In this document: positions 30,645-59,662 of the stretch, piece after piece | Numbering within the stretch: the stretch's first letter is position 1 | Layout: each line of letters opens with the position of its first letter | Assembly: GCA_963664705.1 (NCBI GenBank) | Contig: OY761556.1 | Coordinates: 5,984,001 to 6,048,000 of the forward strand | Source: Acidobacteriota bacterium | GTDB taxonomy: Bacteria > Acidobacteriota > UBA6911 | Length of the DNA: 64,000 bases | Reading direction: 5' to 3' | Position numbers and translations under genes: made by a program | Notes under the pieces: model-generated | What the model was told of the DNA's origin: nothing | What the model saw: only the letters and a program-made list of their open reading frames with translations | The model's database searches: none

Positions 30645-32483
30645 ATGTCTATCCCGAGTTGTTATGCGGGTAAAATCCTGCTTGTCAATTTAACTGATGG
30701 AAAGCTGAGTGAAGAGGTCCCCGACGAGAGGATCTACCGGGAGTTTGTCGGAGGCAATGGGTTGGGGGTCCGGATCCTTTATGAAAGGATAAAGCCGGGG
30801 ACTGACGCATTGGGTCCCGATAACATTCTGGGATTCGTTGCCGGCAGCTTGACGGGAACAAAGGCACCGGGGAGCGGTCGGCATATGCTGGTCACAAAAT
30901 CTCCTCTCACCGGAACCTGGGCCGAGTCCAATTCCGGAGGAACGTTCGGTCCGGAACTGAAGACTGCCGGCTATGACGCCGTGTTGTTTTATGGCATTTC
31001 TCCGCGTCCCGTGTACCTGCTGATTCGGGATGGCAAAGCCGAATTGAAGGATGCTTCTCATCTTTGGGGACGGGATGCCTACGAAACGCAGGATCTTCTG
31101 CTGCAGGCATTCAACGATCCGAGAATGAAAATTTCGTGCATTGGCCCGGCGGGGGAAGCCGTTTCGCTGCTGGCCGGCGTTGTCAGCGAACGGGGCAGGA
31201 TGGCCGCACGGAATGGCGTGGGTGCCGTGATGGGTTCCAAAAGACTGAAGGCCGTTGCCGTCTCCGGCGGGTATCATGAGATCGTGCCGGCAAACCCGCA
31301 GAAGTTCAATGTCGCCTTTGGACAATTCCTTGCCATCATTCAAAACAACGAGTATGCAAAGGAACTTGCTGCTTCCGGGACCGGCAGCAATATCAGTTTT
31401 CTGGTCTCGATCGGAGATGTCCCGCTAAAGAACTGGCAATTGAGTGGCCTGGACGCCCTCCCCTCCGTCACCAACCTGGATGGCGGCAATATGAACAAAT
31501 ACAAGGTGGGCAATTTCGGATGCTATGCCTGCCCGATCAGTTGTGGCGGCATTATCCGTCAGGAGGCGGGGCCATTTGCCATAAAAGACCAGATGCACCG
31601 GCCGGAGCAGCAAACGCTGGCAGCCTTGGGCGGCATGTTGATGAACGACAATCTCGAGGCGGTCATTAAGGCAAATGATATATGCAATCGATACGGCATC
31701 GACACGATGGGAGTTGGCGGCTGCATTGCGATGGCGATGGAGTGCTACGAACGGGGTCTGATCAGCCGAGAAGAGACTGACGGCATCGACTTGACCTGGG
31801 GAAATGCCGAGGCCATTGTCGCGATGGTGGAGAAGATAGCCAAACGCGAGGGGTTTGGCGCCGTCCTGGCGGACGGATCGGGAAAGGCTGCAGAGAGGAT
31901 CGGAAGAGGATCCGAAAAATATGCCGTGGCTATTCGTGGCAAGAGCCTGGCCTTCCATGATCCGCGCATGTCCCCATCTCTGGGGACTGCCAATATTGCC
32001 GATGCCAATCCCGCCCATCACATGGATAGTCAGATTACCGGGATGATCACGGAAGGGGCCGCGATCGGCTCCGATCCGGCATTGCAGGCTTCCAAGGACA
32101 ATCCGTTCAGGGCCTATGTGATAGGCAGTGCCTATCACCAGTTGTTGAATGCGGCCGGATTGTGCTCCCTCTATACGGTTGCGACCTCCCCGCCTCCTAT
32201 CGCCGAACTGATTGAAGGGGCCTGTGGCTGGGATTTTGGGTGGGAAGCGGCCATGACCGCGGGCCGTCGAATTCTAACGCTGAGGCAGGCTTTCAATGCC
32301 CGGGAGGGATTGACTCCAGACCAGTTTGAGTTGCCTAAACGTATTGCCTCCACCGCCAGAGTGAATTTTTCCGGTTTGAGAGACGGGTATTTTCAGGAGA
32401 TGGGGTGGGACCTCAAATCGGGCAAACCTTCAAAACAGTCGCTCAATGAACTGGGCTTGTCCCAATTGACCTCGGATCTATAA
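30645..32483 (+). CDS. Tungsten-containing aldehyde:ferredoxin oxidoreductase (AOR/WOR family)
   Basis: GKILLVNL, KSPLTG, SNSGG, IGPAGE, GAVMGSKRLKAV, CYACPISC plus GLC 4Fe-4S ligands, GIDT, FNAREG. Confidence 0.92.
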   Translation: MSIPSCYAGKILLVNLTDGKLSEEVPDERIYREFVGGNGLGVRILYERIKPGTDALGPDNILGFVAGSLTGTKAPGSGRHMLVTKSPLTGTWAESNSGGTFGPELKTAGYDAVLFYGISPRPVYLLIRDGKAELKDASHLWGRDAYETQDLLLQAFNDPRMKISCIGPAGEAVSLLAGVVSERGRMAARNGVGAVMGSKRLKAVAVSGGYHEIVPANPQKFNVAFGQFLAIIQNNEYAKELAASGTGSNISFLVSIGDVPLKNWQLSGLDALPSVTNLDGGNMNKYKVGNFGCYACPISCGGIIRQEAGPFAIKDQMHRPEQQTLAALGGMLMNDNLEAVIKANDICNRYGIDTMGVGGCIAMAMECYERGLISREETDGIDLTWGNAEAIVAMVEKIAKREGFGAVLADGSGKAAERIGRGSEKYAVAIRGKSLAFHDPRMSPSLGTANIADANPAHHMDSQITGMITEGAAIGSDPALQASKDNPFRAYVIGSAYHQLLNAAGLCSLYTVATSPPPIAELIEGACGWDFGWEAAMTAGRRILTLRQAFNAREGLTPDQFELPKRIASTARVNFSGLRDGYFQEMGWDLKSGKPSKQSLNELGLSQLTSDL

Positions 32484-32566: not shown

Positions 32567-34291
32567 TTATCTCCACTTATCCACAGAAGCGCTGGAAAGA
32601 TAGCCGAAATCGGCAGCCTGCCAGAAAAGATTCGTCCCGCCTCCGACCGAAAGGATATGGATGTTGGTCGGACGTGCAATCAGCGGAATCTTTTCCGTGC
32701 GCGGAAGCTTCATCCACGATGCAAAGGGCTCGGCCCCCTGTCTGGCTGTGGGCAGAATGAAGTTTTGCACGCTGTAGTAATTATCCAGCCATTCGCCCAC
32801 TGTCGTTGTGGTGTTCTTGAAAACGTAATCGATCAACTGCTCCTTGGAATTGAATCCTTCTCTTTCCTTGAGCTGCTTGATGATGGTTGGATCCAGCAGC
32901 AGAGTTGCCGGAGAGAATGGGCTGATGAATTTCAGCCAGAACGGAATCTGTTCGGCAAAGGGCTTTCCAAAGCTTTGGTCCGGATGCGTTATTCCCCATC
33001 CGCCAAAAGTACTGACAACGCTTTCCTGCTTTTTAAAACCCTTCTGCACGTGATACGGGTTCCAACCTTCCGGAAGCTCCTCTTCATTTTCAGGCATGCA
33101 CAGGTTGTTATACATGAGGTTGTTGCCCTGGCTGCCCATGTATACCTGGCCGGGATGCGCCCCACCGTCGAGGTTAATAGACATTAGAGTCCAGGCTCTT
33201 CCAATGACGGAATTTGCCTGATTGAACGGACCGAGCGCGCCAATGCCGGCGTTCATCTTTATTTCGTTGCGGATTGGGCCGTTGACCACCACCATTCTGG
33301 CGAACGAGGTGGTGGAGGTGAACACGGACGGGACGCCGGTGGATGCCAAGGCCAGAATGACCGGGAAATGCTCCGGCTTTGCCCCGGCCATTACCGCGTT
33401 GACCGCAACCTGTTCGACGTTGTAGCTCCAGGCAGGGTGAGGCGAAGAAGCCTGCATTTTCCCTACCAGTTCGTCCGGCTTATGGCTTGTCCCCTTCAGC
33501 ATTTCAGCGACTCGAGCTTCGGTCGGCAGCACAATAGGAAGCCCGTCTGTCCATTCATTGTCAAGGAAGAGGCGGGTCAGGTTTTCGGGTGTATCAGGCT
33601 TGACCAGTCTGGGCGTGGGTTGCTCGATGAATCCCTTCTTACTGTCTTCCTCGCTCAGGGGTGTAATCAGGGCCGCGACGATTTCCTGCAAGACGGGTTT
33701 GCCCGTTACAGGGTCGTTCCCCTGCAGGTATTTCCGGCAGGTCTCTGCCGGTACTCCCGTAATCGGGTGCGGAACAAAAGTGAAGCGCTGATTAGGCATA
33801 CCGCGTTTGAAAGTGTAATTTTTAACAAGATCCTGGAAAACTCTTGTAACAACCGGGGCGGTAGGAACTCCAAGTTTTTCGAGTGTCAAACAATGGCCGA
33901 CGACCGACGGCGAGCATGAACTTCAATGCCCGACCCCCATGATGGTTCCGGCGCCCGCTGCCTTTATTTCGGCCCATAACTTTTGATCGTCATCAAAGTA
34001 TGTGCCCGCCTTGGTCCGCACAACGAAATTTGCTTTGGGATATTTTTCGCTAAGCAGCTTCTGCATTTCTGTAAAAAACTGGTGCGTGTCGGTGAATCCG
34101 ATATCGACGATGTAGATAGTTTTCCCGTCGAGGGAGGTAAACCGTGGGGCCATCGGGACTCTCGCGATTGGCGGCGGCTGTCCCATGGGATTCAACACGG
34201 TGATCTTGGGCTCCTGCGCCTGCAGAATCCCGAAGAACGCCGGGACGAAAAAGATGACTGCAAGGTATAAAGCAACCGTTTTCTTTCTCAA
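32567..34291 (-). CDS. Secreted UGSC-family selenoprotein (U-x-x-C); in-frame TGA at 33923-33925 read as Sec; about 574 aa
   Basis: ORFs 33923-34369 and 32567-33889 share a frame and are joined by 11 sense codons: ...MGVGH-TGA-SSCSPSVVGHCLTLEKLGVPTAPVVT. TTG start at 34291 follows AAGGAG and begins a signal peptide. SECIS-like hairpin follows the TGA. Confidence 0.85.
33893..33917 (-). other. Candidate bacterial SECIS element
   Basis: After UGA: aguuc AUG cuc GCCG u C ggUC G u CGGC CAU. The apical loop begins with GG 17 nt after the UGA. Confidence 0.6.
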
Positions 34292-34523
34292 CGTATTTCT
34301 CCTTACCATGAATCGGGCGGTGTTATGCCAGGGGGATACGTGCTTGCCGCAGCCGGCGGATCGCCACAAACCGATTCGGTTTTGCTGGCGATTCGATGCG
34401 GTTTTCCCCGTTCCCGTTTTTCTACTCTATCACCGGAAGACGCCGAATCAGGAACTTTTCTTGGATTCGCGTCGTATCACTACGATAGAATTTCAGGACG
34501 AAACCTTTGCCGGGGAGAGGAAA

Positions 34524-37463: not shown

Positions 37464-38003
37464 CTAACAGCGGGAAGCGATCCAGCCGCTGCCGCACAGA
37501 GTAAAGCACTCTCCGCAGGCCCGGCATGAAAGCTCGGCGCCTTCGACAAGGGCCGGTTTCCGTTCGACGCCGCGTCCCTTGAAATAAATTTTGTTCTGCT
37601 TTTTGACGTCAGAGCAATACCGCAGACAAAGTCCGCAGAGACTGCAGTCGGTCATACCGGTTTTGAACCTTGATGAAGTAACGCCGTATTCCTCTGCATA
37701 CAACTGCCACGACGGCCAGAGAAGCTCGATGATCATTTTACGGATCTTTCTCACTTTTTCCGTACTGGTCTGGACCTTCAATCCCTCTTCCGCAGGATAG
37801 ACGCAGGATGCGACCAGTCTCTTCCGTCCCCACTTGGTTTCAATCTCAACCACGCACATGCGACATCCGCCGTAGTCTTCCAGCCTGTCGTCATGGCATA
37901 AGGTTGGAATCTTGATTCCCATCGATCTTGCTACCTGCAGGACGGTTTGACCTTCTTCTGCCTGAACTGCACGGCCATCGATTTCCAGATTTACTTTTTC
38001 CAT
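37464..38003 (-). CDS. HoxU/NuoG-N-terminus-like Fe-S subunit (2Fe-2S plus two 4Fe-4S)
   Basis: IPTLCH..GGCRMCVVE..ASC, then CSLCGLC..C and CRACGEC..C; GAGG RBS. Confidence 0.88.
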   Translation of the reverse strand: MEKVNLEIDGRAVQAEEGQTVLQVARSMGIKIPTLCHDDRLEDYGGCRMCVVEIETKWGRKRLVASCVYPAEEGLKVQTSTEKVRKIRKMIIELLWPSWQLYAEEYGVTSSRFKTGMTDCSLCGLCLRYCSDVKKQNKIYFKGRGVERKPALVEGAELSCRACGECFTLCGSGWIASRC

Positions 38004-38013
38004 GGTGACCTCA

Positions 38014-39921
38014 CTACTTTGATGCGGGCGCTGCCGCTGGTTGTTGCTGCATTGAGTTTGCCGGCACTTTGATGACGGCCCTGCATTTTTCAGGACAGGC
38101 CGAGAAGCACGCGCCGCACTTGATGCACTTGGCCTGAATGACCGTGTAGACTTTGTCTTCCGATTTGTTGATGGCTGCCACCGGGCAATTGCGCAGGCAG
38201 GCTCCGCATTTCGAGCATTTTTCCTGATCGATGTCATAGGCAATCAGGGAGGCACAGACGCCCGCCGGGCAACGTTTTTGCCGGATGTGCTCGAGGTATT
38301 CCTCGCGGAAATACTTCAGCGTGCTGGCGACCGGGAACGGCGCGGATTGACCCAGGGCGCAGAGAGACGCGGCTTCCATGAACTCCGAGAGCTCTTCCAG
38401 GAGCTGCAAGTCCCCTTCCTCTCCCTGTCCGGAAGTGATCCGGTTCAGGATATTCAGCATCTGACGCGTACCCTCCCGGCAAGGGACGCATTTCCCGCAC
38501 GATTCATGGGCAAGGAAGTTGATGTAGTAGCGGGCGGTATCCACCATACAGGTGTCTTCGTCCATGACGATCATTCCGCCCGAACCCATCATCGAGCCGA
38601 CCTTGGTGAGCTCGTCGAAATCGACCGGCAGATCGAGAAGCGATTCGGGAATAACTCCACCGGAGGGACCACCGGTCTGCACCGCTTTGAATTTCTTCCC
38701 CTTCGGGATGCCGCCGCCGATCTTGAAGATGATATCGCGGAGCGAAATGCCCATCGGGACTTCGACCAGCCCGGTATTTCGCACTTTGCCGACCAAGGAA
38801 AAAATCTTGGTGCCCTTGCTTCCCTCGGTCCCCATTCCGCGGAACCATTCCGAGCCGTGATTAATGATGTGCGGAACATTGGCCCAGGTTTCCACATTAT
38901 TCAGACAGGATGGTTTTCCCCAGAGTCCCTTTTCCGATGTGTGGATGTATTTCGGACGAGGTTCCCCGACCTTGCCTTCGATGGCACTCATCAGAGCGCT
39001 CGATTCGCCGGAAACGAAGGCGCCCGCTCCGCGGTGAATTATCACATCAAAAGAAAATCCGGATCCGAGGATGTTCTTGCCCAGCAGTCCATATTCCCGG
39101 GCCTGGTCAAGCGCCATCTGCGCATGTTTGCGGGCAAGCGGGTATTCCTGGCGAACGTAGATGAACCCTTCGGAAGCTCCAATGGCATAGGCGCCGAGAA
39201 TGAGACCCTCAAGAACTCCGTGCGGGTTTCCTTCGAGCAGGCTGCGATCCATGTAGGCGCCCGGATCGCCTTCGTCCGCATTGACGATGACATACTTCGG
39301 TTCACCGTGGGCCTTCTTTGTGGTTTCCCACTTCCGACCGGCCGGGAATCCGCCACCACCGCGCCCACGCAGGTTGGCAGCCTTCACTTCGTTCAACACC
39401 GCTTCGGGCGTCATTCCGGATAGCGCTTTGGCTAAGGCCGAATATCCGCCGACTGCAATGTAATCGAGAATATTGGAGGCATCGATCTTCACGTTATTCT
39501 CGAGAAGCACGCGCTTCTGGTATTTGTAAAACGGAATTTCCTCCAGGTGAGTCAGGCGTTTTCCGCTGTCTTCATCAAGATACAGAAGCTTGTCAACGGA
39601 GCCGTTGCTGCCGGCCAGCTTGTCGACAATAGCGGGAATGTTTTTTTCCTGAGTGCCAACGTAGCAGACATCGGACGGCTGAATGACAACCAGGGGGCCG
39701 CGTTCACAGAAGCCGTGGCATCCCGTTCGGCGAACGCCTACTTTGTCGGAAAGGCCTCGTTGCCCAATTTCCTTTTCGAGCGATTCTGCAAGGGCTTCCG
39801 CTCCATAGGCCCGGCAGCCAGTGCCGGCGCAGACCGCCAGCCAGGTTTCCTTCGCGTTGCGCTTGGCGAGAATCTGATCTTTAAGTTTTGAAAGATCCGC
39901 AGGGGTTTCTATGCGAGACAT
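38014..39921 (-). CDS. NuoF/HydB-like FMN- and NADH-binding subunit with N-terminal 2Fe-2S and C-terminal 2x4Fe-4S domains
   Basis: CAGTGC..GCHGFC, LRGRGGGGFP, NADEGDPGAYMDR, NNVETW, GGPSGG, ESCGKCVPCREG, two ferredoxin motifs. Confidence 0.93.
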   Translation of the reverse strand: MSRIETPADLSKLKDQILAKRNAKETWLAVCAGTGCRAYGAEALAESLEKEIGQRGLSDKVGVRRTGCHGFCERGPLVVIQPSDVCYVGTQEKNIPAIVDKLAGSNGSVDKLLYLDEDSGKRLTHLEEIPFYKYQKRVLLENNVKIDASNILDYIAVGGYSALAKALSGMTPEAVLNEVKAANLRGRGGGGFPAGRKWETTKKAHGEPKYVIVNADEGDPGAYMDRSLLEGNPHGVLEGLILGAYAIGASEGFIYVRQEYPLARKHAQMALDQAREYGLLGKNILGSGFSFDVIIHRGAGAFVSGESSALMSAIEGKVGEPRPKYIHTSEKGLWGKPSCLNNVETWANVPHIINHGSEWFRGMGTEGSKGTKIFSLVGKVRNTGLVEVPMGISLRDIIFKIGGGIPKGKKFKAVQTGGPSGGVIPESLLDLPVDFDELTKVGSMMGSGGMIVMDEDTCMVDTARYYINFLAHESCGKCVPCREGTRQMLNILNRITSGQGEEGDLQLLEELSEFMEAASLCALGQSAPFPVASTLKYFREEYLEHIRQKRCPAGVCASLIAYDIDQEKCSKCGACLRNCPVAAINKSEDKVYTVIQAKCIKCGACFSACPEKCRAVIKVPANSMQQQPAAAPASK

Positions 39922-40982
39922 GCTTGCGCCTCCTCTTTCTGTAGTGTCTTGATGATTTTCTCGAGCTTGCTCCGTGAGGGATCTCGGTGATACTGCGAGT
40001 CGATCTGAACCACGGGAGCCAGGGCGCAGCAACCAATGCAATGGACTGTCTCGAGTGTGAATTCCTGTTTACTGTCAGTTTGACCGGCCTCGATTCCGAG
40101 CAGAGCGGAAATCCTGGTCAGCACTTCGGAGGCTCCGCGCACGTGGCAGGCCGTTCCAGTGCAGACCTGGACCGTATGCCGGCCGCGTGGTTCAAGGCTG
40201 AACGCCTCATAGAAGTTTGCCACGATATAAATCTCGCGAAGCGGAATGTTCAGCCGGCCGGAAATCCAGCTCAGAATGTGTCTCGGAAGCCAACGGAAGG
40301 TTTCCTGTACATCCAGGAGCACCTGAATCAGAGCATTCTTCTGGAAATCATATTTGCGCATGATTTCGTCGACTTTCAGCAGCTCCTCCCTGATATCCAG
40401 GATCGCCCGTTCCTTCTTTTTGATCTGGCCCAGGCTTTCCGCGTGGTACTTGGCCTCGCTTTCCAGGTAGGTGAGTTCATCGAGGAGTTGCCGTTTTTCA
40501 AGGCCAAGGGAGTATGCTTCCCCGAGAACATCCAGTCCCTGCAACAGCAGGTCGTATTTGTCGGACGGATGCGGCTGCGCGGGAGCCTGCATTTTTTTCG
40601 CTTCCCGGCGCAGGTTGCTGAGCCCAAGCGCCCGGCGCACGGTTTCAAGCAGCTTTTCCGCTTCAAACGGTTTGGTCAGGAAATCAAAAGCTCCCAGCTT
40701 CATGGATTCCACTGCGGAATCAACGGTCGCATTTCCAGTGACAACGACCGGGACCGCGGCCGGATCAATCCTGATGATTTCCGATATTGCTTCGAGCCCC
40801 GTCATCCCCTGCATTTTCAGGTCGAGGAGCACAACCCCCGGATGGGAGGACGCTACGGCTTGAATGCCTTGCTGTGCGTTTTTGGCGACAGAGGTACGGT
40901 AGCCGCCGGCTTCCAGTATCCGGCTGCACGTCTCCAGAAAATTTTCCTCGTCGTCAATAATAAGTACATCTATTGGGCGCAT
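39909..40982 (-). CDS. Response-regulator receiver domain fused to a NuoE/HydC-like 2Fe-2S subunit
   Basis: REC: IIDDE, LLDLKM, VTG, LTKPF. Helical linker. NuoE: LIQVLLDVQE, VANFY..F, CTGTACHVRG, CIGCCALAP. Confidence 0.9.
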   Translation of the reverse strand: MRPIDVLIIDDEENFLETCSRILEAGGYRTSVAKNAQQGIQAVASSHPGVVLLDLKMQGMTGLEAISEIIRIDPAAVPVVVTGNATVDSAVESMKLGAFDFLTKPFEAEKLLETVRRALGLSNLRREAKKMQAPAQPHPSDKYDLLLQGLDVLGEAYSLGLEKRQLLDELTYLESEAKYHAESLGQIKKKERAILDIREELLKVDEIMRKYDFQKNALIQVLLDVQETFRWLPRHILSWISGRLNIPLREIYIVANFYEAFSLEPRGRHTVQVCTGTACHVRGASEVLTRISALLGIEAGQTDSKQEFTLETVHCIGCCALAPVVQIDSQYHRDPSRSKLEKIIKTLQKEEAQACLA

Positions 40983-41107
40983 CGACGCCCCCTGAGTGGC
41001 TTCCATAGGCAACCTCTTGATAGCTGTTTGATTGCTTTTTTTGGCAGATAGCTTCCATCATCCAGGATACAACCGGATAGACATCACACTTTGCCGCAAA
41101 TGTGCTG

Positions 41108-41122
41108 GCAAGACGTGTGCCA
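41108..41122 (-). promoter_or_regulatory. Sigma54 -24/-12 promoter for the REC-NuoE/NuoF/HoxU-like operon
   Basis: Minus strand TGGCACACGTCTTGC is an exact match to TGGCAC-N5-TTGC, with an AT-rich region upstream. Confidence 0.78.
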
Positions 41123-41560
41123 GAACCCAATCCCAGACATCCGTTGCTGAAATAGTTTTCCAGGAAACTAACTAAAAAGAATAAAACACTTATGTTACGG
41201 CGTCCAGATTCATTTGATTCCTTTCCAAAGGAAGGCAAACTGTTTTTTGTGCGGCCGATACATTAAGTATCACAATAGAGTGAGTCGATACAAATCCGGC
41301 CAGTGGATGTGCATGAGATATGGAGGTGAGGGTGTCAAGCCGGGTAGGCCTGTGGATGAGCCCGAATTTGCTGTTTACTCGTTTGAGTAAAATATTTGTG
41401 AATTTTATCTTGACAGAATACACGCCACTATTAACAATAGGAACATAACTAATCCTTTGGTAAATGTGCGAAGTGGTGCGGGCCGGAAGTAATTTCTAGT
41501 TGGATTTTAGGCACATCGACCGAATTGCATTACCAGCCTTTTCTTTCAAAATGGTGTCTT

Positions 41561-41887
41561 ATGACATACAACAGGCGTCAGCTTTTGAAGGAACTTGATG
41601 TGCTTGTCTCCACAACTCCGCGAATCAGGCTATCTGAGATCGCGCGTACCCTTGGCGTGGACCGGCATACCATCGAAAACGCGATGCGTTCCAGCAGAAG
41701 CATCTCGTTTCGCGAATACAAGCGCAACGAGCTATTGCAGATGGCAAAAGCAATGCTCGATCAGCCCAATGTATCGGTCAAGGAAGTAGGGATAAAGTTG
41801 GGCTATTCGTCGGCGGCGTCGTTTTCCCGTTTCGTACAGAAGTCGACAGGCAAGAGTCCGAGTCAGCTTCGGAAGGAAATGGTCTAG
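41561..41887 (+). CDS. Small AraC-family protein (DNA-binding domain only)
   Basis: LSEIARTLGV..SFREY..AKAML..SVKEVGIKLGYSSAASFSRF..GKSPSQLR. Confidence 0.85.
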   Translation: MTYNRRQLLKELDVLVSTTPRIRLSEIARTLGVDRHTIENAMRSSRSISFREYKRNELLQMAKAMLDQPNVSVKEVGIKLGYSSAASFSRFVQKSTGKSPSQLRKEMV

Positions 41888-42482: not shown

Positions 42483-45400
42483 ATGAGGAGATTTTTACTG
42501 GTAGCGATCCTTTTGGTGCTCGCTTCGGCTCCGGCTTTCAGCCAGTCGAATGCAACACTATATGGTGTCGTTGCCGACGCAACGCAGGCCGTATTGCCCG
42601 GAGTCACCGTCAAGGCGACGAATCTGGAAACGGGCATTGCGAAAACTGCGGTTACAAATGCAGCCGGCGTATACAACTTTGCGGGCATGCAGGTTGGCTC
42701 GTACGACGTTATGGCGGAGTTTACGGGTTTCCAGACCCAGACCTTCAAAGCCGTGAAACTGGGCAACAATGCTCAAGTCCGGTTGAATTTCTCGCTGGAA
42801 ATCAAAAAGCTGGAGCAGCAGGTCGAAGTCAACATCCAAGCCGATAATCTGACTTTGGATACGAGCGCTTCTTCCGGCTCCAAGCTGGACGAGAAGAAGG
42901 TTTCGGAACTCCCGGTCGTCAACAGCAACGTACTCAGCCTGATCAAGGTTATGGGTGGCGTCACCCTGACCGAGAGTCCGATTTTCGGAGCTGACGACAC
43001 ACAGTTTGCAGGCGTCAGCGCGGCTAACGTCAACCTGACCCGTGATGGCGTTACGGCGAATGACGTACGGTACAACACCGGATTGAACTCGCCCGTATAT
43101 CTGAACCCTGAAATGGTCGGCGAATTCAAGATGGTGCTGGCACCGGTCGATGCCGAGATGGGACGCGGCAATGGCCAGGTGTCGGTTGTAACCCGTTCGG
43201 GCGGCAATGCCTATCATGGCAGCCTCGTATGGAACAACCAGAACACCTTCCTCGATGCGAACGAATGGTATGAAAACAAAATCGGACGCGAGCGAGACTG
43301 GCGCAATCAGAACGAATACACGCTCAGCATCGGCGGACCGATAATCAAGAACAAGACGTTCTTCTTTGCTTCGTGGGATCACCAGTTCTCCGCGATCCGG
43401 CAGAACAACGTCAACCAGCAGGTGCCGACACCCTGCGCCCGCAAGGGCATCTTCCGCTATCTTACAAATGTGAGCGGTGGAAATGTTTTGACCAATCCAT
43501 CCGGCGATGGATCGACCTACAACCCGTATGTAACCGCAACCGTGAATGCGGATGGTTCGCCCCGAACGGATGTTATCGTTCCCGGAACCACGGCCGCGGC
43601 GGCTCTGAACCAGATCAGCGTTTTCGGCGCTCTGCTGAAGACGCCCAAAACCAACGACTGCTCCGACGTCACCGTGGATTCAGCCACCGGTTGGCCGACA
43701 GCCGATTGGGTTAATTATTCCGCACCCTATGATCCGCTGCGCACTCCGGATGCCACAGGGTATTACAAGCGGTTCCTGCCGATCATTCCGACGCCGAACA
43801 ACTACCAGGTCGGAGATGGCTTGAACTTCGGCGGCTACCGCTATGTCCGTCATCTGGACGGCGGCGACAACATCTACGGATTGGGCGAAGGTCCGAACCG
43901 GAGACAGATCAATTTCCGTATCGATCACAACTTTAATGCGATGCACCGCATCAGCGGCACCTACAGCTATGAGAAAGACAACGGCGAAGACAGCTTCCCG
44001 ACGTTGCCCTCCAATAGCTGGGGCGGCGCGCTGCTGCGCAATCCGCAAAGCTTTGTTATCAACCTGGTGTCGACTGTTCGGCCGACCCTGCTCAATGAAG
44101 CGCGTATAGGTCTCACACGCACCCAATCCCATACCTATGATCCGTACTACAACCCTAAGAACGGTGATGCTCTGAAGAATAAACTTCAGGAGCTCTTCCC
44201 GACTACCTCCGGGGTACCGGTCGTCATAGGACTTGGCGGCGTCGGATCCTATCCGGCCACCAGCAACATGTTTGCCATTGCCGGCGGTGTCAACGTCTGG
44301 GGCAGCGGCCGAGGAAACTTTGCCTCTACCTGGGGCGGCCATGACCCACGCTGGTCCTATGCCGATACCGTTACCTGGACAAAAGGCCGACATGCAATGA
44401 GGTTCGGCGCGGAGCATCAGAGAACGCAGTCGTATCAGGAAATGAGCGGCACCCTTTCCTTCACCACCGGTGCCAGTGGAATTCCGGCCGTACGCGGCGG
44501 AGCTCCGGTATACAGCGGGTTTGGCGCCAATTCGGGCCTTCACAATCCGTTCTTCCTCACTCCTACACTGCCGGGAATGGCGGGCGGTATGTATTGGGGC
44601 AACGTGTTGGGCGGCGCCTATACGCTCATGAACACGCTGGCCGGAAACATTACCGATGTTGACCAGTATCGTTTTGTCAACTCTCCGACCGCCACGGCGT
44701 ACAATGATCCGAGCAAGGGCGAGTTGATGCGCATCACCGATTACCGCGCCAACACGTTCAGCTTCTTCATGCAGGATGACTGGCGGGTAACCGACAGTTT
44801 CACTTTGAACCTTGGGATGCGCTATGACTGGTACGGTGTTCCGTACCTCAAAGGCGGCATGACCGCAGGGATCAAGGGCGGGGCTCTCAATGTTTTCGGT
44901 CGTTCCGGAAACAGCTTCGCGGACTGGATGCAGCCCGGAACCATGAACAGCAATGGTACCGTTACCTACAAGGGAACCGATGCCGTGCTGGCCTTCATTG
45001 GACCGGATTCCCCGAATCCGAATGAACAGGTCTACAACGACGATTACAACAACTTCGGCCCGGTGTTCGGTTTCGCCTGGCAGCTCCCCTGGTTCGGCAA
45101 AGGCAAAACCACGATCCGCGGCGGCTATCAGTTGAGCTACATGCCCGGTGGAAGAGCGGCTTCCGCTGCCTTCTCCATGCCGAAGATCGAGTATGTGACA
45201 GACTATAAGCCCAATTCGGCAATGCCGTATATCAACCTTTCGAACCTGTCTCAGTTGCTGCCGGTTGTACCGACTCCTTCGTACATCAAGCCGGTGGCGG
45301 CGGATCCGGTGGCCCCGGTGGCGCAGCGCTCGCAGGCGGTTACGGTATTTGATCCGAACATGCGTACGCCGTATGTTGAAAACCTCAACCTGTCGATCAC

Positions 45401-46808
45401 GCGCAACATCACATCCAACCTAATCCTGGATGTTCGCTACATCGGCACGCTGCAGCGCAAGAACACCAGCACCATCGACCTCAATTCCGCGAACATCTGG
45501 AACAACGGGTTGAAGGAAGCTTTTGATACCGCACGTGCCGGCGGCGAATCTGCTTTGCTGGACAAGATGTTTGCCGGTATCAATATCGCCGGATCCAACA
45601 ACGCCTTTTTCAACGGCTATGGACCGGTGGGAACCGTGTATAACGGTGTCCAGCAGACCGGCGCGATGCACCTCCGCGCCTTCAGCGGGACCAATGCCAA
45701 TCTTGCCAACGGCAATTACATTGCCTTGGCCCAGACGCTGGCAACGATGAACTACGATACAACCATCGTCGGCAACTCCGGATTGCCTGCCATCGGCACT
45801 GACACCAATGGCGCCGTACTCCGGTACAACAAATTCCCCGAGAACTTCATCTACACCAGCCCGCAGTTTTCCAGCGTAAGCTGGACTGGAAACCACAACA
45901 ATTCCAATTACCATTCGCTGCAGGCCCAAGTTACGATGCGTCCGACCCACGGGTTCAATCTCCAGGCTACCTATACCTGGAGCAAAAACCTCGGAGCGTT
46001 GGCCTACACCGATCCGCGAAACAGGGCATTGGATTACGGTCCAAACGGCATGGACCGCAACCACGCGCTGGCAATCAACGGCGGATTCGAGTTGCCTTTC
46101 GGACCGGGCAGGTGGCTGCTGAACGGCAAAAACGGAGTCGTATCCCGTATAGCCGGTGGATGGCAGATGAGCTGGATCGGCAACGTTTCCAGCGGCAGGC
46201 CGTACAGCATTACCACGTCGAATACGACGCTGTATGGGGCGACGGCTCCAAACCGCATCGGAACGTTTGAGCCGGGCAACAAGGGGAGTATTGTTTGGCC
46301 GAACGGCGCTTCAACCGGTAATTTCTACGCGAAAGCGGATGGAACAGCCAAGTACTCGCTGGTAGCCGATCCGCAATGCCAGAACGTCACCACCGCTCAG
46401 AACCTTCAGGGTTCGTGCACGCTTTGGGCTTTCGCTGAGAACGGCGATGCGTCCAAGTTGGTATTCGTGAATCCGTATCCGACCCAGCGCGGCAACTTCG
46501 CTCAGAATTCTCTGAGACAGCCCGCCATCTGGAGCGCGGATATGGCGATGTCCAAATCCATCAGAATCACAGAGGGTAAAACTCTCCAGATCCGCATGGA
46601 TGCGACCAACATCTTCAACCATGCACAGCCTTCGGCCGGTGCATTCCAGTCGGGCGTGGTCAGAACCAGAGTACCGGGCGCTCCCGCGGCTACGATGGGC
46701 TCCTACTTTGATTTCACCGATTTTTCTTTTGCTCAAAGGCCCCTGGGCTATGTGAGTTCGAAAGTCGGTTCGCGTACATTCCAGGCGAAGGTTCGGTTGG
46801 ACTTCTAA
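42483..46808 (+). CDS. TonB-dependent receptor, Oar-like, with carboxypeptidase-regulatory N-domain (copy 1)
   Basis: Signal peptide, GVVADATQAVLPGVTV, TRSGGNAYHGS, GGPIIKNKTFFF, QDDWRV..TLNLGMRYD, NNFGP, NIFNH, terminal RLDF. Confidence 0.92.
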   Translation: MRRFLLVAILLVLASAPAFSQSNATLYGVVADATQAVLPGVTVKATNLETGIAKTAVTNAAGVYNFAGMQVGSYDVMAEFTGFQTQTFKAVKLGNNAQVRLNFSLEIKKLEQQVEVNIQADNLTLDTSASSGSKLDEKKVSELPVVNSNVLSLIKVMGGVTLTESPIFGADDTQFAGVSAANVNLTRDGVTANDVRYNTGLNSPVYLNPEMVGEFKMVLAPVDAEMGRGNGQVSVVTRSGGNAYHGSLVWNNQNTFLDANEWYENKIGRERDWRNQNEYTLSIGGPIIKNKTFFFASWDHQFSAIRQNNVNQQVPTPCARKGIFRYLTNVSGGNVLTNPSGDGSTYNPYVTATVNADGSPRTDVIVPGTTAAAALNQISVFGALLKTPKTNDCSDVTVDSATGWPTADWVNYSAPYDPLRTPDATGYYKRFLPIIPTPNNYQVGDGLNFGGYRYVRHLDGGDNIYGLGEGPNRRQINFRIDHNFNAMHRISGTYSYEKDNGEDSFPTLPSNSWGGALLRNPQSFVINLVSTVRPTLLNEARIGLTRTQSHTYDPYYNPKNGDALKNKLQELFPTTSGVPVVIGLGGVGSYPATSNMFAIAGGVNVWGSGRGNFASTWGGHDPRWSYADTVTWTKGRHAMRFGAEHQRTQSYQEMSGTLSFTTGASGIPAVRGGAPVYSGFGANSGLHNPFFLTPTLPGMAGGMYWGNVLGGAYTLMNTLAGNITDVDQYRFVNSPTATAYNDPSKGELMRITDYRANTFSFFMQDDWRVTDSFTLNLGMRYDWYGVPYLKGGMTAGIKGGALNVFGRSGNSFADWMQPGTMNSNGTVTYKGTDAVLAFIGPDSPNPNEQVYNDDYNNFGPVFGFAWQLPWFGKGKTTIRGGYQLSYMPGGRAASAAFSMPKIEYVTDYKPNSAMPYINLSNLSQLLPVVPTPSYIKPVAADPVAPVAQRSQAVTVFDPNMRTPYVENLNLSITRNITSNLILDVRYIGTLQRKNTSTIDLNSANIWNNGLKEAFDTARAGGESALLDKMFAGINIAGSNNAFFNGYGPVGTVYNGVQQTGAMHLRAFSGTNANLANGNYIALAQTLATMNYDTTIVGNSGLPAIGTDTNGAVLRYNKFPENFIYTSPQFSSVSWTGNHNNSNYHSLQAQVTMRPTHGFNLQATYTWSKNLGALAYTDPRNRALDYGPNGMDRNHALAINGGFELPFGPGRWLLNGKNGVVSRIAGGWQMSWIGNVSSGRPYSITTSNTTLYGATAPNRIGTFEPGNKGSIVWPNGASTGNFYAKADGTAKYSLVADPQCQNVTTAQNLQGSCTLWAFAENGDASKLVFVNPYPTQRGNFAQNSLRQPAIWSADMAMSKSIRITEGKTLQIRMDATNIFNHAQPSAGAFQSGVVRTRVPGAPAATMGSYFDFTDFSFAQRPLGYVSSKVGSRTFQAKVRLDF

Positions 46809-46837
46809 TCGCAACCTGAAACCTGTGTAGTACCGGA

Positions 46838-46879
46838 CTCCCCTGTGCAGTCGGAAGGCTGTGCAGGGGAGCCCTTTTT
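46838..46879 (+). terminator. Intrinsic terminator of receptor copy 1
   Basis: ctcccctgtgcagtc-ggaa-ggctgtgcaggggag followed by ccc-ttttt. Confidence 0.75.
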
Positions 46880-46931
46880 AATGACGAATGACGAATGACG
46901 AATGACGAATTACGAATGACGAATTACGAAT
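46880..46931. repeat. 7-mer tandem repeat (AATGACG/AATTACG), seven units
   Basis: aatgacg x4, aattacg, aatgacg, aattacg, aat. Confidence 0.9.
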
Positions 46932-47406
46932 AACCCGCCAGGAAGTCGTTCTCCTTCTCAATACCTCAAATCAATCATCCTATTTTGGCCAAAATGATAA
47001 TGATGAAATGGACCGGGAAATAGCAGATGTGGCCGGGAAATTTGAAAATTGCGCCATAAAGAGAATGTTATTAGCCATTATGGTAACTGAATGCAGTTGC
47101 GTCATTGTAAGGCCCAATGGTCTACTAGGGCCATTCAGGGTTGAATGTATTTCTCTTCATGGATGGGGAGCGGCCTGGCTAGTGGCTGAAATACCCATGA
47201 CCTGGATGAGTGTTTGAAGCAACATCAATAATAACGGGGATTCCATTTTAGTTTTGCAGCACGACTGCTGAGGTTCAGAGGCAGGTGGTGGTGTCGTTAT
47301 TTGCCTTTGACGAAAGTGTCGGCTGCGAGCACTCATCTATACAGAGGAAGAATCCATTCATCTTAGGAACGGAAAGCTTTCGAGTGATCCATACTCAGGA
47401 GGAAAT

Positions 47407-50400
47407 ATGAGGAGATTATTACTGGTAGCGATTCTCTTGGCGCTCGTTTCGGCCCCGGCCTTCAGCCAGTCGAACGCAACGCTGTACGGGATCGTTGCCG
47501 ATGCAACGCAGGCAGTGCTGCCCGGCGTCACCGTGAAGGCGACGGATCTCGATACGGGCATCGTGAAAACTGCGGTCACCAATGCTGCCGGCGTTTACAA
47601 CTTTGCGGGCATGCAGGTTGGCTCGTACGATGTTTCGGCGGAGTTTACCGGTTTCCAGACCCAGACCTTCAAGTCTGTGAAACTGGGCAACAGTGCCCAG
47701 GTCCGGTTGAACTTCAGCCTTGAGATCAAAAAACTCGAACAGTCGGTTGAGGTAAATATTCAGGCGGATAATCTGGTTTTGGATACCGGCGCATCATCCG
47801 GATCAAAGCTGGATGAAAAGAAGGTGGCGGAGTTGCCGGTTGTAAACAGCAACGTGCTCAGCCTTATCAAGGTCATGGGCGGCGTCACAATGTCGGAAAA
47901 CCCGATCTTCGGTGCTGACGACACGCAGTTTGCCGGCATCAGCGCATCGAACATCAACCTGACGCGCGATGGTGTTTCAGCCAACGACGTTCGTTGGGCA
48001 ACGGGACTCAATTCCCCCGTGTACCTGAATCCCGAAATGGTCGGCGAATTTAAGATGGTTCTCGCCCCGGTCGATGCGGAAATGGGACGCGGCAATGGCC
48101 AGGTATCGGTTGTGACGCGGTCGGGCGGAAACGCCTACCACGGCAGCGCGGTCTGGAACAACCAAAACACCGCGCTCGATGCCAACCAGTTCGTGGATAA
48201 CAGAACAGGCCGTGTTCGTGATTGGCGCAACCAGAACGAATACACCATCAGCATCGGCGGACCGATCATCAAGAATAAAACGTTCTTCTTCGCATCTTGG
48301 GATCAGCAGTTCTCCATCATGAAACAGAACAGCACCGCCAACAACCTGTCCCCGACTCCGTGCGCCCGATTGGGGATCTGGCGTTATATGAGCAATATAA
48401 ATGGCACGAACATTACAGCGAATCCTGGCGGGACTGGAACGGTGCAAAGCCCGTATACCTCTCCGGTCACTGATGCCCAGGGCGTGCCTTTGACGACAAT
48501 CAATCTGCCGGGCGGCGCGACGATGCCGGGAACACTCAATTACATCAGTGTTTTCGGTAAACTGCTGAAGACTCCCCAGACGAACGACTGCTCGGATGTT
48601 GCGGTTGATTCCGCCACCGGGCTGCCCACCTCTGCCTGGGTCAACTACGGCGCTCCTTATGATCCTCTTCGGACGCCGGATGCCTCTGGGTACTTGAAGA
48701 GGTTTATGCCTTTGATCCCGAAACCGAACAATTACCTTATCGGCGATGGATTAAACTGGGGTGGATTCACATATGTTCGTAGGCTGAGCGGTGCGGATAA
48801 TGTTTACGGAATCGGCGAAGGACCGAACCGGAAACAGATCAACTTCCGTATCGACCACAACTTCAGCTCGAAGCACCGGATCAGCGGCACCTACAGCTAT
48901 GAAAAAGACAAAGCGATGGACGCGTTCGCATCCATGCCCACAAACAGCTGGGGAGGAGCCGTACTCCGAAGTCCGCAAAATTTTTCAGTTAACGTTACAT
49001 CGACGTTAAGACCAACACTGCTCAATGAAGTTCGCGTCGGGTTGACCCGTACGCAATCGAGCACCTATGACCCCTACTACAATCCTGAAAACGGCGATCA
49101 GCTGAAAAACAAGCTGCTCGAGCTGTATCCCAATGCCGCCAATCTACCAATCCTGGTCTCCATAGGCAACTTTGGCCTCGGGACCGGAAACGGTGCGACC
49201 AATGGTATGCACGTGTATGGCACCGGTCGTGGAAACCAGGCTGCGACCTGGGGCGGATATGATCCGCGCTGGGTGTATGCGGATACTCTGACCTGGACCC
49301 GCGGCAGACACTCCATGAAGTATGGAGCGGAGATGCAGCGAGTGCAGTCATTCCAGAATCAGCGGGGCGGAATTTCATTCACCACCGGTATGTGGTCGTA
49401 TCCGACTTTATACGGCGGCGCGTATGTTGCCCCGAGCGCCAGCGCCTTCGGAGCCAATTCCGGTCTTTCCGATGCAGCCGGCAACGCGAATTATACTGCG
49501 ATGCCGAACGTAGCGGGAAGTGCCACCTATGGAGCTGTGGTAACCGGTGCGTATCAATTGATGAACACGCTGGCGGGCAATATTACGACTGTCAACCAGT
49601 GGAGATTCGTGAACTCGCCGACGGCGACGACTTATAACGATATCTCCAAGGGCGAGGACATGCGATTCAGCGATGTCCGTGCCAACCAGATCAGCTTCTT
49701 CTTCCAGGATGACTGGAGAGTTACGGACAGCTTCACTCTTAACCTCGGTCTCCGCTACGACTGGTATGGCGTGCCGTACCTCAAAGGCGGTATGACGAAC
49801 GGAATCAAAGGAGGCGCCCTGGCTGCCTTCGGACGTTCCGGATCGAGTTTCGACGACTGGATGAAGCCCGGAACCATGAATGCGGACGGCTCCGTAACCT
49901 ACAAGGGAAAAGACGCCGAACTGGCCTTCATCGGACCGGATTCCCCGAATCCTGATCAGCAGCTTTACAATGACGACTGGAACAACTTCGGTCCCGTGTT
50001 TGGATTTTCGTGGCAGGTGCCGTGGTTCGGAAAAGGGAAAACCACTCTTCGCGGCGGCTATCAGATGAGCTACATGCCTCCGGGAAGACTGGCCGCGGCT
50101 ACAGTCAGCGCGCCAAAAATCGAATCCACGATTACCTACTCTCCGAATGCAAATATGCCGTACATTAATCTGAGTAATGTTTCTCAGATTAGTCCCACCT
50201 GGCCGATTCTGACGGTGACGGCCGGCGTTAAGCCGGTTGCCGCTGATCCGGTTTTCCCCGTTACTCAGCGGACACTGGGGATTACGGTGTATGATCCGAG
50301 CATCGTTGTTCCATATGTTCACAACCTGAACATGTCCATTACGCGCAACATCACTCCAAACATCATGCTGGATATCCGCTACATTGGAACCTTGCAGCGG

Positions 50401-53065: not shown

Positions 53066-54424
53066 CTACTGTTTTTGTTTGTCGAGTAGTCCGTACTTCT
53101 GCATTTTCTCGCGCAGGGTTTTTCGATTGATTCCGAGATATTCCGCCGCTTTCGATTTGTTTCCGTGGAACTGTTCCAGCGCATTGAGGATCTCGTTCTG
53201 TTCGAGTCGCGCCAGGCTTCCGCCGGTCGGCGCCTTCGGGCTGGAAATGTCCGTCATCTCATAGGGAAAGTCCCCGGCACCGATCAAATTTCCTTCGCCG
53301 GTGACAATCGCGGATTCCAGGGCGTTGATCAGTTCCCGCACATTGCCGGGCCACTCCCGTCTTTTCAAAAAACGCATGGCTTCATCAGAGATGCGCAGCG
53401 CGGGGCGGCCTTTTTCGGAAGCAATCTTCCTTACGTAATAATCTACCAGCGTCGGAATATCTTCGAGCCGTTCGCGCAATGGCGGTACGGAAATATGAAC
53501 AACGTTCAGCCTATAATACAGGTCCTCGCGAAACTTGCCCTCCCGGACCGCCTGGGGCAGATCGCGATTAGTCGCCGAGATGATGCGCACATCGATTTTT
53601 TTCTTGGTCGTACTTCCCACGCGGGAAATCTCCCGTTCCTGGACCGCGCGCAGAAGACGGGCCTGCATATTGATGCTTATGTTGGCGATCTCGTCGAGAA
53701 AAAGCGTTCCTCCCTCGGCCAGCTCAATTTTCCCAACGGTGTTTTCGATCGCTCCGGAGAAAGCGCCTTTCACATGCCCGAACAGTTCGCTCTCAAAAAG
53801 GCTTTCCACCAGCGTGCCGCAGTCCACCGTTACGAATCTTCTATTTGAACGGTTGCTGAGATTGTGAATGGCGCGGGCAACGACCTCTTTGCCGACGCCG
53901 GTCTCCCCGGTCACCAGTACCGTGGAATCAACCGGGGCGGCCTTCTGAATCAGGCGCACTACCTGGCTCATTGCTTCAGACCGTCCAATCAGAGATTGGG
54001 ACATTATCTTTCTCTCGAGTCCCTGGCCGATGCAGGCATTCTCGAGAGCTCTGCGCGCAGCCGTTGCCGCCCGTTCCACGCGGGACTCCAGAACTTCCGG
54101 CTTGAACGGTTTGGGAAGATAATCGAAGGCACCAGCTTTGATGGCATCCACGGCAGAATCATACGTCGCATGGCCGGCAATGATAATCACGGCTGTATTG
54201 GGAGATTCCTGCTTCAGCCGATTCATCACATCCATCCCCGGCATGCCCGGCATTCCCAAATCGAGCAAAGCTACATCGAAGGATTCCAGCCGGATTTTTT
54301 CCAAAGCCTGGTCTCCGTTTTCGGCAATAGCCGTGGCATAGCCTGCCGAGTCCAAGGCCTGGCGGCATGCCACGCGCATGGATTCGTCGTCGTCGATAAT
54401 AAGCACTCTGGAGCGAAGAGACAT
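53066..54424 (-). CDS. Sigma54-dependent response regulator (REC-AAA+-Fis HTH, NtrC/AtoC family)
   Basis: IIDDD/LLDLGM/LPKPF receiver, GETGVGKE, ESELFGHVKGAFSGA, LFLDEI, FREDLYYRL, WPGNVREL, AAEYLGINRKTL. Confidence 0.95.
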   Translation of the reverse strand: MSLRSRVLIIDDDESMRVACRQALDSAGYATAIAENGDQALEKIRLESFDVALLDLGMPGMPGMDVMNRLKQESPNTAVIIIAGHATYDSAVDAIKAGAFDYLPKPFKPEVLESRVERAATAARRALENACIGQGLERKIMSQSLIGRSEAMSQVVRLIQKAAPVDSTVLVTGETGVGKEVVARAIHNLSNRSNRRFVTVDCGTLVESLFESELFGHVKGAFSGAIENTVGKIELAEGGTLFLDEIANISINMQARLLRAVQEREISRVGSTTKKKIDVRIISATNRDLPQAVREGKFREDLYYRLNVVHISVPPLRERLEDIPTLVDYYVRKIASEKGRPALRISDEAMRFLKRREWPGNVRELINALESAIVTGEGNLIGAGDFPYEMTDISSPKAPTGGSLARLEQNEILNALEQFHGNKSKAAEYLGINRKTLREKMQKYGLLDKQKQ

Positions 54425-59002: not shown

Positions 59003-59587
59003 ATGAACTTTTGGCGTGAGTCTGGGAAGAGCTTTCTGAACTATTCAAAATATATCTTGCCTGCCGGGGGCGTGGCGGTTCTTGCCACAGTATTGGGAGT
59101 CGGTTGGTTTACCCAGCCTGACCGGTTTGTCCGCGGATATCAGCCGGTGCAGCCTATCCCTTATTCGCACCAGCTTCATCCCGGTACGCTTCGCATTCCG
59201 TGTCTCTATTGTCACTCCGGTGCGCAGCGATCACGGCAGGCCGGAGTTCCGCCGGTCGAGAAGTGCATGAATTGCCACCGGGTAACCAAGACCGATAGTC
59301 CGTATATCAAGAATCTGACTGCAATCTATAATTCCGGAAGGCCGATGCAGTGGAAGCGGATTCACTCGCTGCCCGACCATGTCTATTTCGATCACAGGCC
59401 GCATGTGAATGCCGGCGTATTGTGCCAGACCTGTCACGGTGAAGTGCAGACGATGAATGTTGTCTATCAGCAGATGTCCATGCGGATGAGTAATTGTCTT
59501 GGGTGTCACCGTGATCCCAAGAGTGCGCTTCCAGCCGGGTCGGCAATCAAGAAAGGTCCGGAACACTGTTACGCCTGTCATCGGTGA
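59003..59587 (+). CDS. actA: Alternative complex III pentaheme cytochrome c subunit
   Basis: One TM, QPIPYSHQLH, five CxxCH motifs, LPDHVYFDH, terminal CHR. Confidence 0.9.
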   Translation: MNFWRESGKSFLNYSKYILPAGGVAVLATVLGVGWFTQPDRFVRGYQPVQPIPYSHQLHPGTLRIPCLYCHSGAQRSRQAGVPPVEKCMNCHRVTKTDSPYIKNLTAIYNSGRPMQWKRIHSLPDHVYFDHRPHVNAGVLCQTCHGEVQTMNVVYQQMSMRMSNCLGCHRDPKSALPAGSAIKKGPEHCYACHR

Positions 59588-59662
59588 CGTGATCAGAAAA
59601 TTTCCGGGAGGCCGCTGCCGGAGCTGGCCGCGAATCCCGGTGAGTGCGAAGGATATATCTGA

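Follow-up and report, generated by a model that had tools for sequence, protein, structure and literature searches.

A receiver domain fused to the BfuC subunit of a predicted NADH/ferredoxin-bifurcating module in an Acidobacteriota genome

Results

The fusion gene and its domains

The window is the whole 64,000-nucleotide stretch that was analyzed, positions 5,984,001 to 6,048,000 of contig OY761556.1 (assembly GCA_963664705.1) from an Acidobacteriota bacterium of the UBA6911 lineage. Its minus strand carries rec-bfuC (39909..41006), which encodes a receiver (REC) domain, a spacer, a helical linker and a NuoE/HydC/BamG-type subunit, followed by bfuB (38014..39921) and bfuA (37464..38003). Positions 39909-40982 (minus) form a single unbroken open reading frame (ORF) of 357 residues. 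It overlaps the start of the NuoF-like bfuB by 13 bp (39909-39921), an overlap already seen in a sequence-only reading of the window that preceded this analysis. That reading began the gene at 40982. An AAGAGG ribosome site precedes an ATG at 41006, 8 codons further upstream, and close homologues start there too, so ATG 41006 is probably the true start.

The REC domain (residues 6-115; 40638..40967, minus) matches Pfam Response_reg with an E-value of 5e-26 and a score of 91.5 bits against a cut-off of 30.2. The model has a predicted local distance difference test score (pLDDT) of 92-98 in this region, the fold is flavodoxin-like, and receiver structures match it at 2.4-2.9 Å. The hallmarks of a receiver are an acidic pair, a phosphoacceptor Asp, a Thr or Ser, and a Lys. 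All five canonical sites are present as D10, D11, D54 (LLDLK; codon 40821-40823), T82 and K104 (KPF). The NuoE/BfuC domain (residues 204-347; 39942..40373, minus) matches Pfam 2Fe-2S_thioredx (E = 8e-47), retains the [2Fe-2S] ligands C274, C279, C315 and C319, and has chain 9mqx_C of Wor-Bfu as its top Foldseek match. The complete receiver and the intact four-Cys NuoE domain described by the sequence-only reading are thus both borne out.

The REC-NuoE fusion is real. Both Pfam domains occur in 120/120 best homologues (68-93% identity) and in 120/120 homologues listed for a distant member that is 50% identical, so the architecture search proposed earlier returned both domains in all 240 homologues examined. 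Existing automatic annotations also name both domains. Read support across the junction was likewise found: contigs from X2 and X3, two runs on a single sample that may be the source, span the gene with zero differences. A second study (X5) gave pieces identical to the gene, none of which covers all of rec-bfuC. This last observation is what can be said for a misassembly or chance read-through that joined a response regulator to nuoE, and the probability of such an artifact is negligible. The fusion and a linker of constant length recur in all 240 homologues aligned, and a metagenome scan with the linker motif, which returned 115 stretches (80 with flanks), placed REC and linker in one ORF at 71 of the 80 flanked loci; 4 encoded the linker and NuoE only, 2 were unrelated and 3 had no ORF. 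The family of fused homologues rules out a misassembly or frameshift at the junction. Three REC+NuoE clusters with 57, 60 and 102 members are present in the Atlas.

A loosely tethered receiver on a rigid linker

The segment between the two domains has two parts. A variable spacer (residues 120-141; 40560..40625, minus) contains the end of REC helix 5 and then a likely flexible tether. The conserved helical linker (residues 142-203; 40374..40559, minus) begins with a short helix that matches helix B of the ribbon-helix-helix (RHH) fold and continues as a long helix that runs into the NuoE four-helix bundle. An AlphaFold model built on 62 sequences (pLDDT 87.9) has REC, a low-confidence stretch at residues 134-139 (pLDDT <50), a helix at 142-158 and a long helix at 163-210 entering NuoE; its predicted template modeling score of 0.43 leaves the domain arrangement undefined. 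An earlier model on 31 sequences was poor (pLDDT 66.7). The REC-to-linker spacing, K104 to L147, ranges from 37 to 85 residues over 240 homologues, and the linker-to-NuoE spacing, L147 to L218, is 71 residues in 238 of them. Because the REC-linker distance varies while the linker-NuoE distance is fixed, the spacings indicate that REC is loosely tethered and that the linker is a rigid part of BfuC. The charged helical linker of the sequence-only reading therefore stands as a conserved helical module of fixed length, but not as a single unit, since a variable, low-confidence spacer precedes it. A homodimer prediction for residues 135-262 scored 0.00, which counts neither for nor against dimerization.

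The same linker occurs without REC, behind a short RHH-like segment, in the relatives P0129, P0163 and L256. The Atlas places this segment among RHH proteins (scores 0.90-0.92); a Pfam RHH match to the segment preceding the linker came from 1 of 10 sequences scanned and, at E = 0.03, fell below the cut-off. Alignment to the RHH-bearing relatives pairs the first helix of the linker with the second helix (helix B) of the RHH domain. In P0145, a Fur domain occupies the linker attachment site that REC uses elsewhere. A phylum search around genome G041 found the RHH-linker form in 1/301 genomes, a figure uninformative on absence since scoring was limited to 6 candidates in each genome. BfuC proteins with RHH-like or Fur-type N-termini were recorded at L256:8450-9169 and L046:1049-2152 and as P0129, P0163 and P0145; the L256 module has no catalytic neighbor, and these forms are possible DNA-binding Bfu modules.

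One NuoE clade (support 0.987, 33/96 sequences) unites the RHH and Fur forms with every long-linker REC fusion. Short-linker REC-NuoE fusions, eleven in all, are spread through the tree, with two inside the linker clade. This scatter suggests that REC-NuoE fusion arose repeatedly, in a tree of a short domain with numerous weak nodes. NuoE is also fused behind an N-terminal HdrA part in archaeal and bacterial Hdr clusters (L063:9554-10471, L078:9548-10489, L116:4519-5406 and L098).

The partner subunits define a Type 2 Bfu module

BfuB is a NuoF/HydB/BamH-type protein of 635 residues with bifurcating-type signatures and all iron-sulfur and zinc ligands. Pfam resolves an N-terminal [2Fe-2S] domain, the FMN/NAD core, SLBB, a [4Fe-4S] site, a zinc site and two C-terminal [4Fe-4S] sites, and the Cys ligands are kept across a 75-member clade. 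The available text of PMC7311640 gives the bifurcating signature as A/E232, M234, F367 and GGPSG. BfuB has A222, M224 and GGPSG at 417-421, at an offset of +10 to 7p5h_B, and both candidate sites for F367 (F302 and F360) are Phe. BfuA is a short, BamI-like protein of 179 residues that corresponds to the N-terminal part of NuoG. It has one [2Fe-2S] and two CxxCxxCxxxC [4Fe-4S] motifs, no His-ligated motif and no catalytic domain. Type 2 Bfu enzymes are defined, in the available text of PMC9304861, by a BfuA with clusters A1, A2 and A4 and without A3 and A5, and the BfuA of the window has A1, A2 and A4 only. Because the BfuB cluster motifs and the motif set of the short BfuA match, the module is assigned as a Type 2, BamGHI-like BfuABC with predicted NADH/ferredoxin bifurcation.

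Of 146 BfuB sequences placed in a tree, the 75 whose BfuC partner bears the linker group in a single clade (support 1.0) that adjoins Bam-type and other partner-less modules, with a weak sister link (0.65). A respiratory complex I NuoE was rejected because the 635-residue BfuB is HydB-type and falls below the TIGR01959 NuoF equivalog cut-off. A Bam subunit proper, of class II benzoyl-CoA reductase, was rejected because no bamBCDEF genes lie beside the module. A preference for NADP was considered from the GES motif of BfuB and is not claimed, since 9mqx_B shares the motif and the literature gave no support.

The genome of the window, G000, carries a separate and complete bamB-I-like cluster at G000:C1:3816091-3826775 with CoA-transferase genes alongside. 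By resemblance and gene order it encodes an aldehyde:ferredoxin oxidoreductase (AOR), a ferredoxin, HdrB/C-like proteins, HdrA, MvhD and an unfused BfuCBA, and is likely an Acidobacteriota example of a class II benzoyl-CoA reductase. Elsewhere in G000, several stand-alone receivers and Fe-S-bearing kinases flank two [FeFe]-hydrogenase Bfu operons (G000:C1:141309-151768 and 1737949-1747249).

A kinase, an activator and a promoter accompany the module in relatives

Within the genus of the window, the linker was found in 21 of the 24 genomes. It was not seen in any of 16 further genera of its class, and a sample of 300 genomes from the phylum yielded 2 with the linker, again members of this genus. 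Source names among the matches listed are Acidobacteriota, Deltaproteobacteria and Rectinema. A scan of GTDB by family alignment (NuoE patterns) returned chiefly unfused genes, with 5/80 loci fused, and served as an outgroup only. The loci were divided into those outside the subclade of the window (outer loci, n = 38) and those within it (n = 36). One exact duplicate locus was removed, and other near-duplicates of the same organisms remain.

Outer loci hold a cassette of five genes, in the order Cache-3 histidine kinase, NtrC-type activator, rec-bfuC, bfuB and bfuA, with a sigma-54 promoter ahead of rec-bfuC. Among loci with at least 4 kb of upstream sequence (26 outer, 19 in the subclade), the kinase is directly upstream at 23/26 outer loci and NtrC at 25/26; in the subclade an adjacent kinase is found at 0/19 and NtrC at 7/19. 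Scanned cassette kinases have the same transmembrane-Cache3-HAMP-HisKA-HATPase architecture (6/6). G640, a genome of the same genus that branches outside the subclade of the window, retains the whole cassette. Clustering of the neighboring genes gave no sixth conserved cassette gene.

A sigma-54 (-24/-12) promoter-like site with 1 mismatch to the consensus lies upstream of rec-bfuC in the window (41107..41122, minus). A scan with this consensus, allowing at most 2 mismatches, placed a site before rec-bfuC in 26/33 outer and 14/27 subclade upstream regions, compared with 1.5% of shuffles and 2/54 upstream regions of unfused NuoE genes. An NtrC-type sigma-54 response regulator identified with Pfam (53066..54424, minus) is the orthologue of the cassette activator, displaced by 12 kb. 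It is 50-69% identical to the cassette NtrC proteins and groups with them in the REC tree; its own REC has Ala in place of the conserved Thr. Two tandem large genes (42483-51777), which we take by resemblance to encode TonB-dependent receptors, and an AraC regulator gene (41525-41887) lie between NtrC and rec-bfuC.

A REC tree that included the 141 receivers of the genome resolved the BfuC receivers (0.98) and the NtrC receivers (0.81). The two groups form a joint clade (0.91) that holds only 2 other receivers of the genome. This kinship is consistent with one kinase common to BfuC-REC and NtrC-REC.

Receiver decay follows loss of the kinase

All five REC sites are canonical in 33/36 outer BfuC proteins and in 114/119 distant homologues, and the NtrC REC is canonical in 28/30 cases where the kinase is adjacent. 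The corresponding values in the kinase-less subclade are 21/35 for BfuC and 0/7 for an adjacent NtrC. The ratio of REC to NuoE divergence is 0.86 with an adjacent kinase versus 2.8 in the kinase-less subclade, where NuoE, the linker and the BfuB Cys ligands stay conserved. These comparisons point to purifying selection on REC where the kinase is present and to relaxed selection in the lineage of the window. Because NuoE, the linker and the BfuB ligands are conserved and most genomes of the genus keep the linker, the module appears to have a job that lasts beyond the kinase, consistent with an enzyme that has a regulatory input.

G000 is a single contig with a completeness of 98%. It encodes two paralogous Cache-3 kinases (G000:C1:1839054 and 6525769); neither belongs to the clade of cassette kinases (0.967), and they have their own regulators. 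The sequence-only reading had proposed a search for the cognate kinase; relatives supply an adjacent Cache-3 kinase, but it is missing from the genome of the window.

REC is fused to a formate/nitrite transporter at L254:9290-10558 (G000:C1:1837289-1838558, minus). The gene follows those for a Cache-3 kinase and a separate REC protein, next to glycyl-radical-enzyme-like and activase-like genes, and the literature search gave no description of such a fusion. The architecture suggests phospho-gating of a formate channel. Because a paralogous kinase adjoins this REC-channel fusion, the Cache-3 kinase family seems to pair with REC-fused metabolic effectors more than once.

Discussion

The sequence-only reading had proposed that two-component phosphorylation may directly control assembly or electron flow of an NADH/ferredoxin enzyme, or that the enzyme may report its redox state to a kinase. 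Control by phosphorylation gains genomic support at the level of the family, where a kinase is adjacent, REC is under selection and the BfuC and NtrC receivers are kin. The case is weaker in the genome of the window, where the cognate kinase is missing and selection on REC is relaxed. The preferred interpretation, at a probability of about 0.5, is that a kinase acts on the BfuABC module by phosphorylation together with transcriptional induction of its genes. An outside ligand would activate the membrane Cache-3 kinase, which would phosphorylate NtrC to induce the operon from the sigma-54 promoter. The kinase would also phosphorylate BfuC-REC and switch the module directly, and one kinase acting on both receivers would constitute a feed-forward loop. 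The REC tether is variable whereas the linker is anchored to the four-helix bundle in contact with BfuA, so REC would work by docking or pairing and not via a rigid helix. The module itself is a stand-alone, predicted NADH/ferredoxin-confurcating BfuABC; its catalytic partner would be encoded at another locus, as an AOR or an HdrA-MvhD complex. Survival of the redox module after kinase loss favors a metabolic role in which REC is an input. In the genome of the window, the intact REC is an orphan, its cognate kinase being gone. It probably receives phosphate by cross-talk or from small phosphodonors, or is an idle relic on a constitutive module; whether it is phosphorylated in vivo is somewhat doubtful, at a little under even odds.

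Several observations weigh against control by phosphorylation. No orthologue of the cognate kinase was found in G000. There is no conserved catalytic partner: among loci with at least 6 kb of downstream sequence (22 outer, 26 in the subclade), none was found within 8 kb at 19/22 outer and 16/26 subclade loci, in a screen that compared neighbors only to reference proteins of the window's own genome. BfuA lacks the C-terminal segment of its Bam-cluster homologues. D54 is retained in 34/35 kinase-less proteins, which relaxed selection alone leaves unexplained. Kinase loss is essentially a single evolutionary event and near-duplicate loci remain, so the counts overstate independence. Finally, DNA-binding-type domains, RHH and Fur, sit at the REC attachment site in relatives, which suggests that information can flow out of the module.

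These last domains also support a rival reading, in which the module is a sensor. NADH/ferredoxin-driven motion of BfuC would gate the tethered REC, which would drain or block the kinase; because NtrC induces the operon, the result would be a redox-gated negative feedback of the FixT type. More broadly, the clade of partner-less BfuABC modules would be sensors of the NADH/ferredoxin state with a swappable BfuC output, either an RHH or Fur domain or, here, a receiver that closes a redox-gated loop on the kinase and sigma-54 activator. The absence of a conserved catalytic partner, the shortened BfuA, a sigma-54 site that places the operon under the cassette's NtrC, the single well-supported NuoE clade (0.987, n = 33) of RHH-, Fur- and REC-bearing linkers, and the precedent of FixT (available text of PMC7078487) all speak for this model. 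A pure sensor for the kinase should decay along with it, but the redox module is strongly constrained after kinase loss while REC decays, and the kinase carries its own extracytoplasmic Cache sensor. Both the feedback loop and its extension to the clade are judged unlikely. Slightly less probable again is that REC serves as a structural or docking appendage independently of phosphorylation, having been captured from the neighboring NtrC-family gene, comparable to a supernumerary subunit. The degenerate acidic pocket of 14/35 subclade proteins and the existence of linker-BfuC proteins without REC agree with an appendage, as does MSMEG_2064, which, in the available text of PMC10068793, binds complex I with its Asp occluded. 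The canonical REC of distant homologues and of 33 of the 36 kinase-linked loci speaks against an appendage, and the decay is restricted to the kinase-less clade.

The module most closely resembles BamGHI and Wor-Bfu. Like BamGHI, it has a three-subunit HydC/HydB/short-HydA set with the same predicted clusters, five [4Fe-4S] and three [2Fe-2S] (available text of bioRxiv 10.64898/2026.04.10.717634), and BfuB and BfuA group beside Bam-cluster homologues that include those of the genome's own bam-like cluster. Unlike BamGHI, it has no bamBCDEF neighbors, its BfuC carries REC and a 60-residue helical linker, and its BfuA is shorter. The same preprint, in its available text, describes a BamG four-helix bundle that engages BamI, proposes that the BamG C-terminal domain moves in confurcation, and reports that BamGHI-type modules can be produced in E. 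coli. Wor-Bfu of Acetomicrobium mobile (available text of PMC9304861; PDB 9MQX) shares the five BfuB cluster motifs, the bifurcating signatures and a BfuA with A1, A2 and A4 only; its chains rank first or second among solved relatives, and both modules carry the GES and KYIH motifs. The difference is that no third-substrate subunit is conserved in the operon described here.

Receivers have been associated with redox enzymes in other ways. Rv3143/MSMEG_2064 is a receiver attached to an NADH-oxidizing Nuo-type enzyme and a proposed modulator of it, but in the available texts of PMC9274095 and PMC10068793 it is a separate polypeptide that touches NuoB, A, C and I of the membrane-bound complex and has no known kinase. 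In the BfuC family, REC and a NuoE-type subunit share one polypeptide within a soluble module, and a kinase and NtrC are co-encoded. FixT of Caulobacter links a receiver to an iron-sulfur cluster and feeds back on a two-component system, but it is a single-domain receiver that binds the cluster itself (PMC7078487, available text), whereas the clusters here belong to a flavin/iron-sulfur enzyme. REC-thioredoxin reductase and REC-pyruvate phosphate dikinase fusions (PMC5847659, available text) also place REC on a metabolic or redox enzyme domain; the output here is instead a non-catalytic iron-sulfur subunit of a multi-subunit bifurcating complex.

The sequence-only reading knew of no characterized example, and for the fusion itself this held in the literature searched, with the stand-alone mycobacterial complex I receiver (PMC9274095 and PMC10068793, as available) as a near precedent. 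No description of a REC-BfuC fusion was found in that literature, most subscription papers being outside its coverage, and no report of direct phospho-control of an electron-bifurcating enzyme was found in it. The main text of bioRxiv 10.64898/2026.04.10.717634 does not mention 'receiver' or 'response regulator'. Neither the main text nor one supplement of PMC9304861 mentions a BfuC fused to REC, though its large sequence table may lie outside these parts, and PMC5847659 has no mention of an NADH, ferredoxin or 2Fe-2S output. The fusion is conserved and apparently unstudied, a variant both of response regulators with enzymatic output and of Bfu enzymes.

Electron-bifurcating enzymes govern the NADH/ferredoxin economy of anaerobes. 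The cassette points to a specific kinase, activator, promoter and target, and with BamGHI-type modules obtainable from E. coli this makes phospho-control directly testable; the kinase-less genus provides natural controls with a decayed REC. Motion of BfuC is the proposed gate of HydABC-type bifurcation, and a natural handle on BfuC could probe the coupling mechanism.

Candidate partners and neighboring genes

An AOR-family gene identified with Pfam lies in the window on the opposite strand (30645..32483, plus) and is a candidate partner only. AOR genes occur within 8 kb at 10/26 subclade and 0/22 outer loci. An HdrC-HdrB-HdrA-MvhD cluster without an electron-input module (G000:C1:43930-51177) is a candidate partner in trans; the REC protein that follows the cluster stands alone and is related to the receivers of the cassette.

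Two UGSC ORFs at 32567-34369 (minus) share one frame and are split by a single TGA in the context H-(TGA)-S-S-C; they are probably one selenoprotein gene. The larger part has 34 tblastn matches in the genome. An operon at 59003-63999 (plus), labeled by resemblance only as alternative complex III-like, encodes a cytochrome c, a molybdopterin-like/iron-sulfur subunit and an NrfD-like protein.

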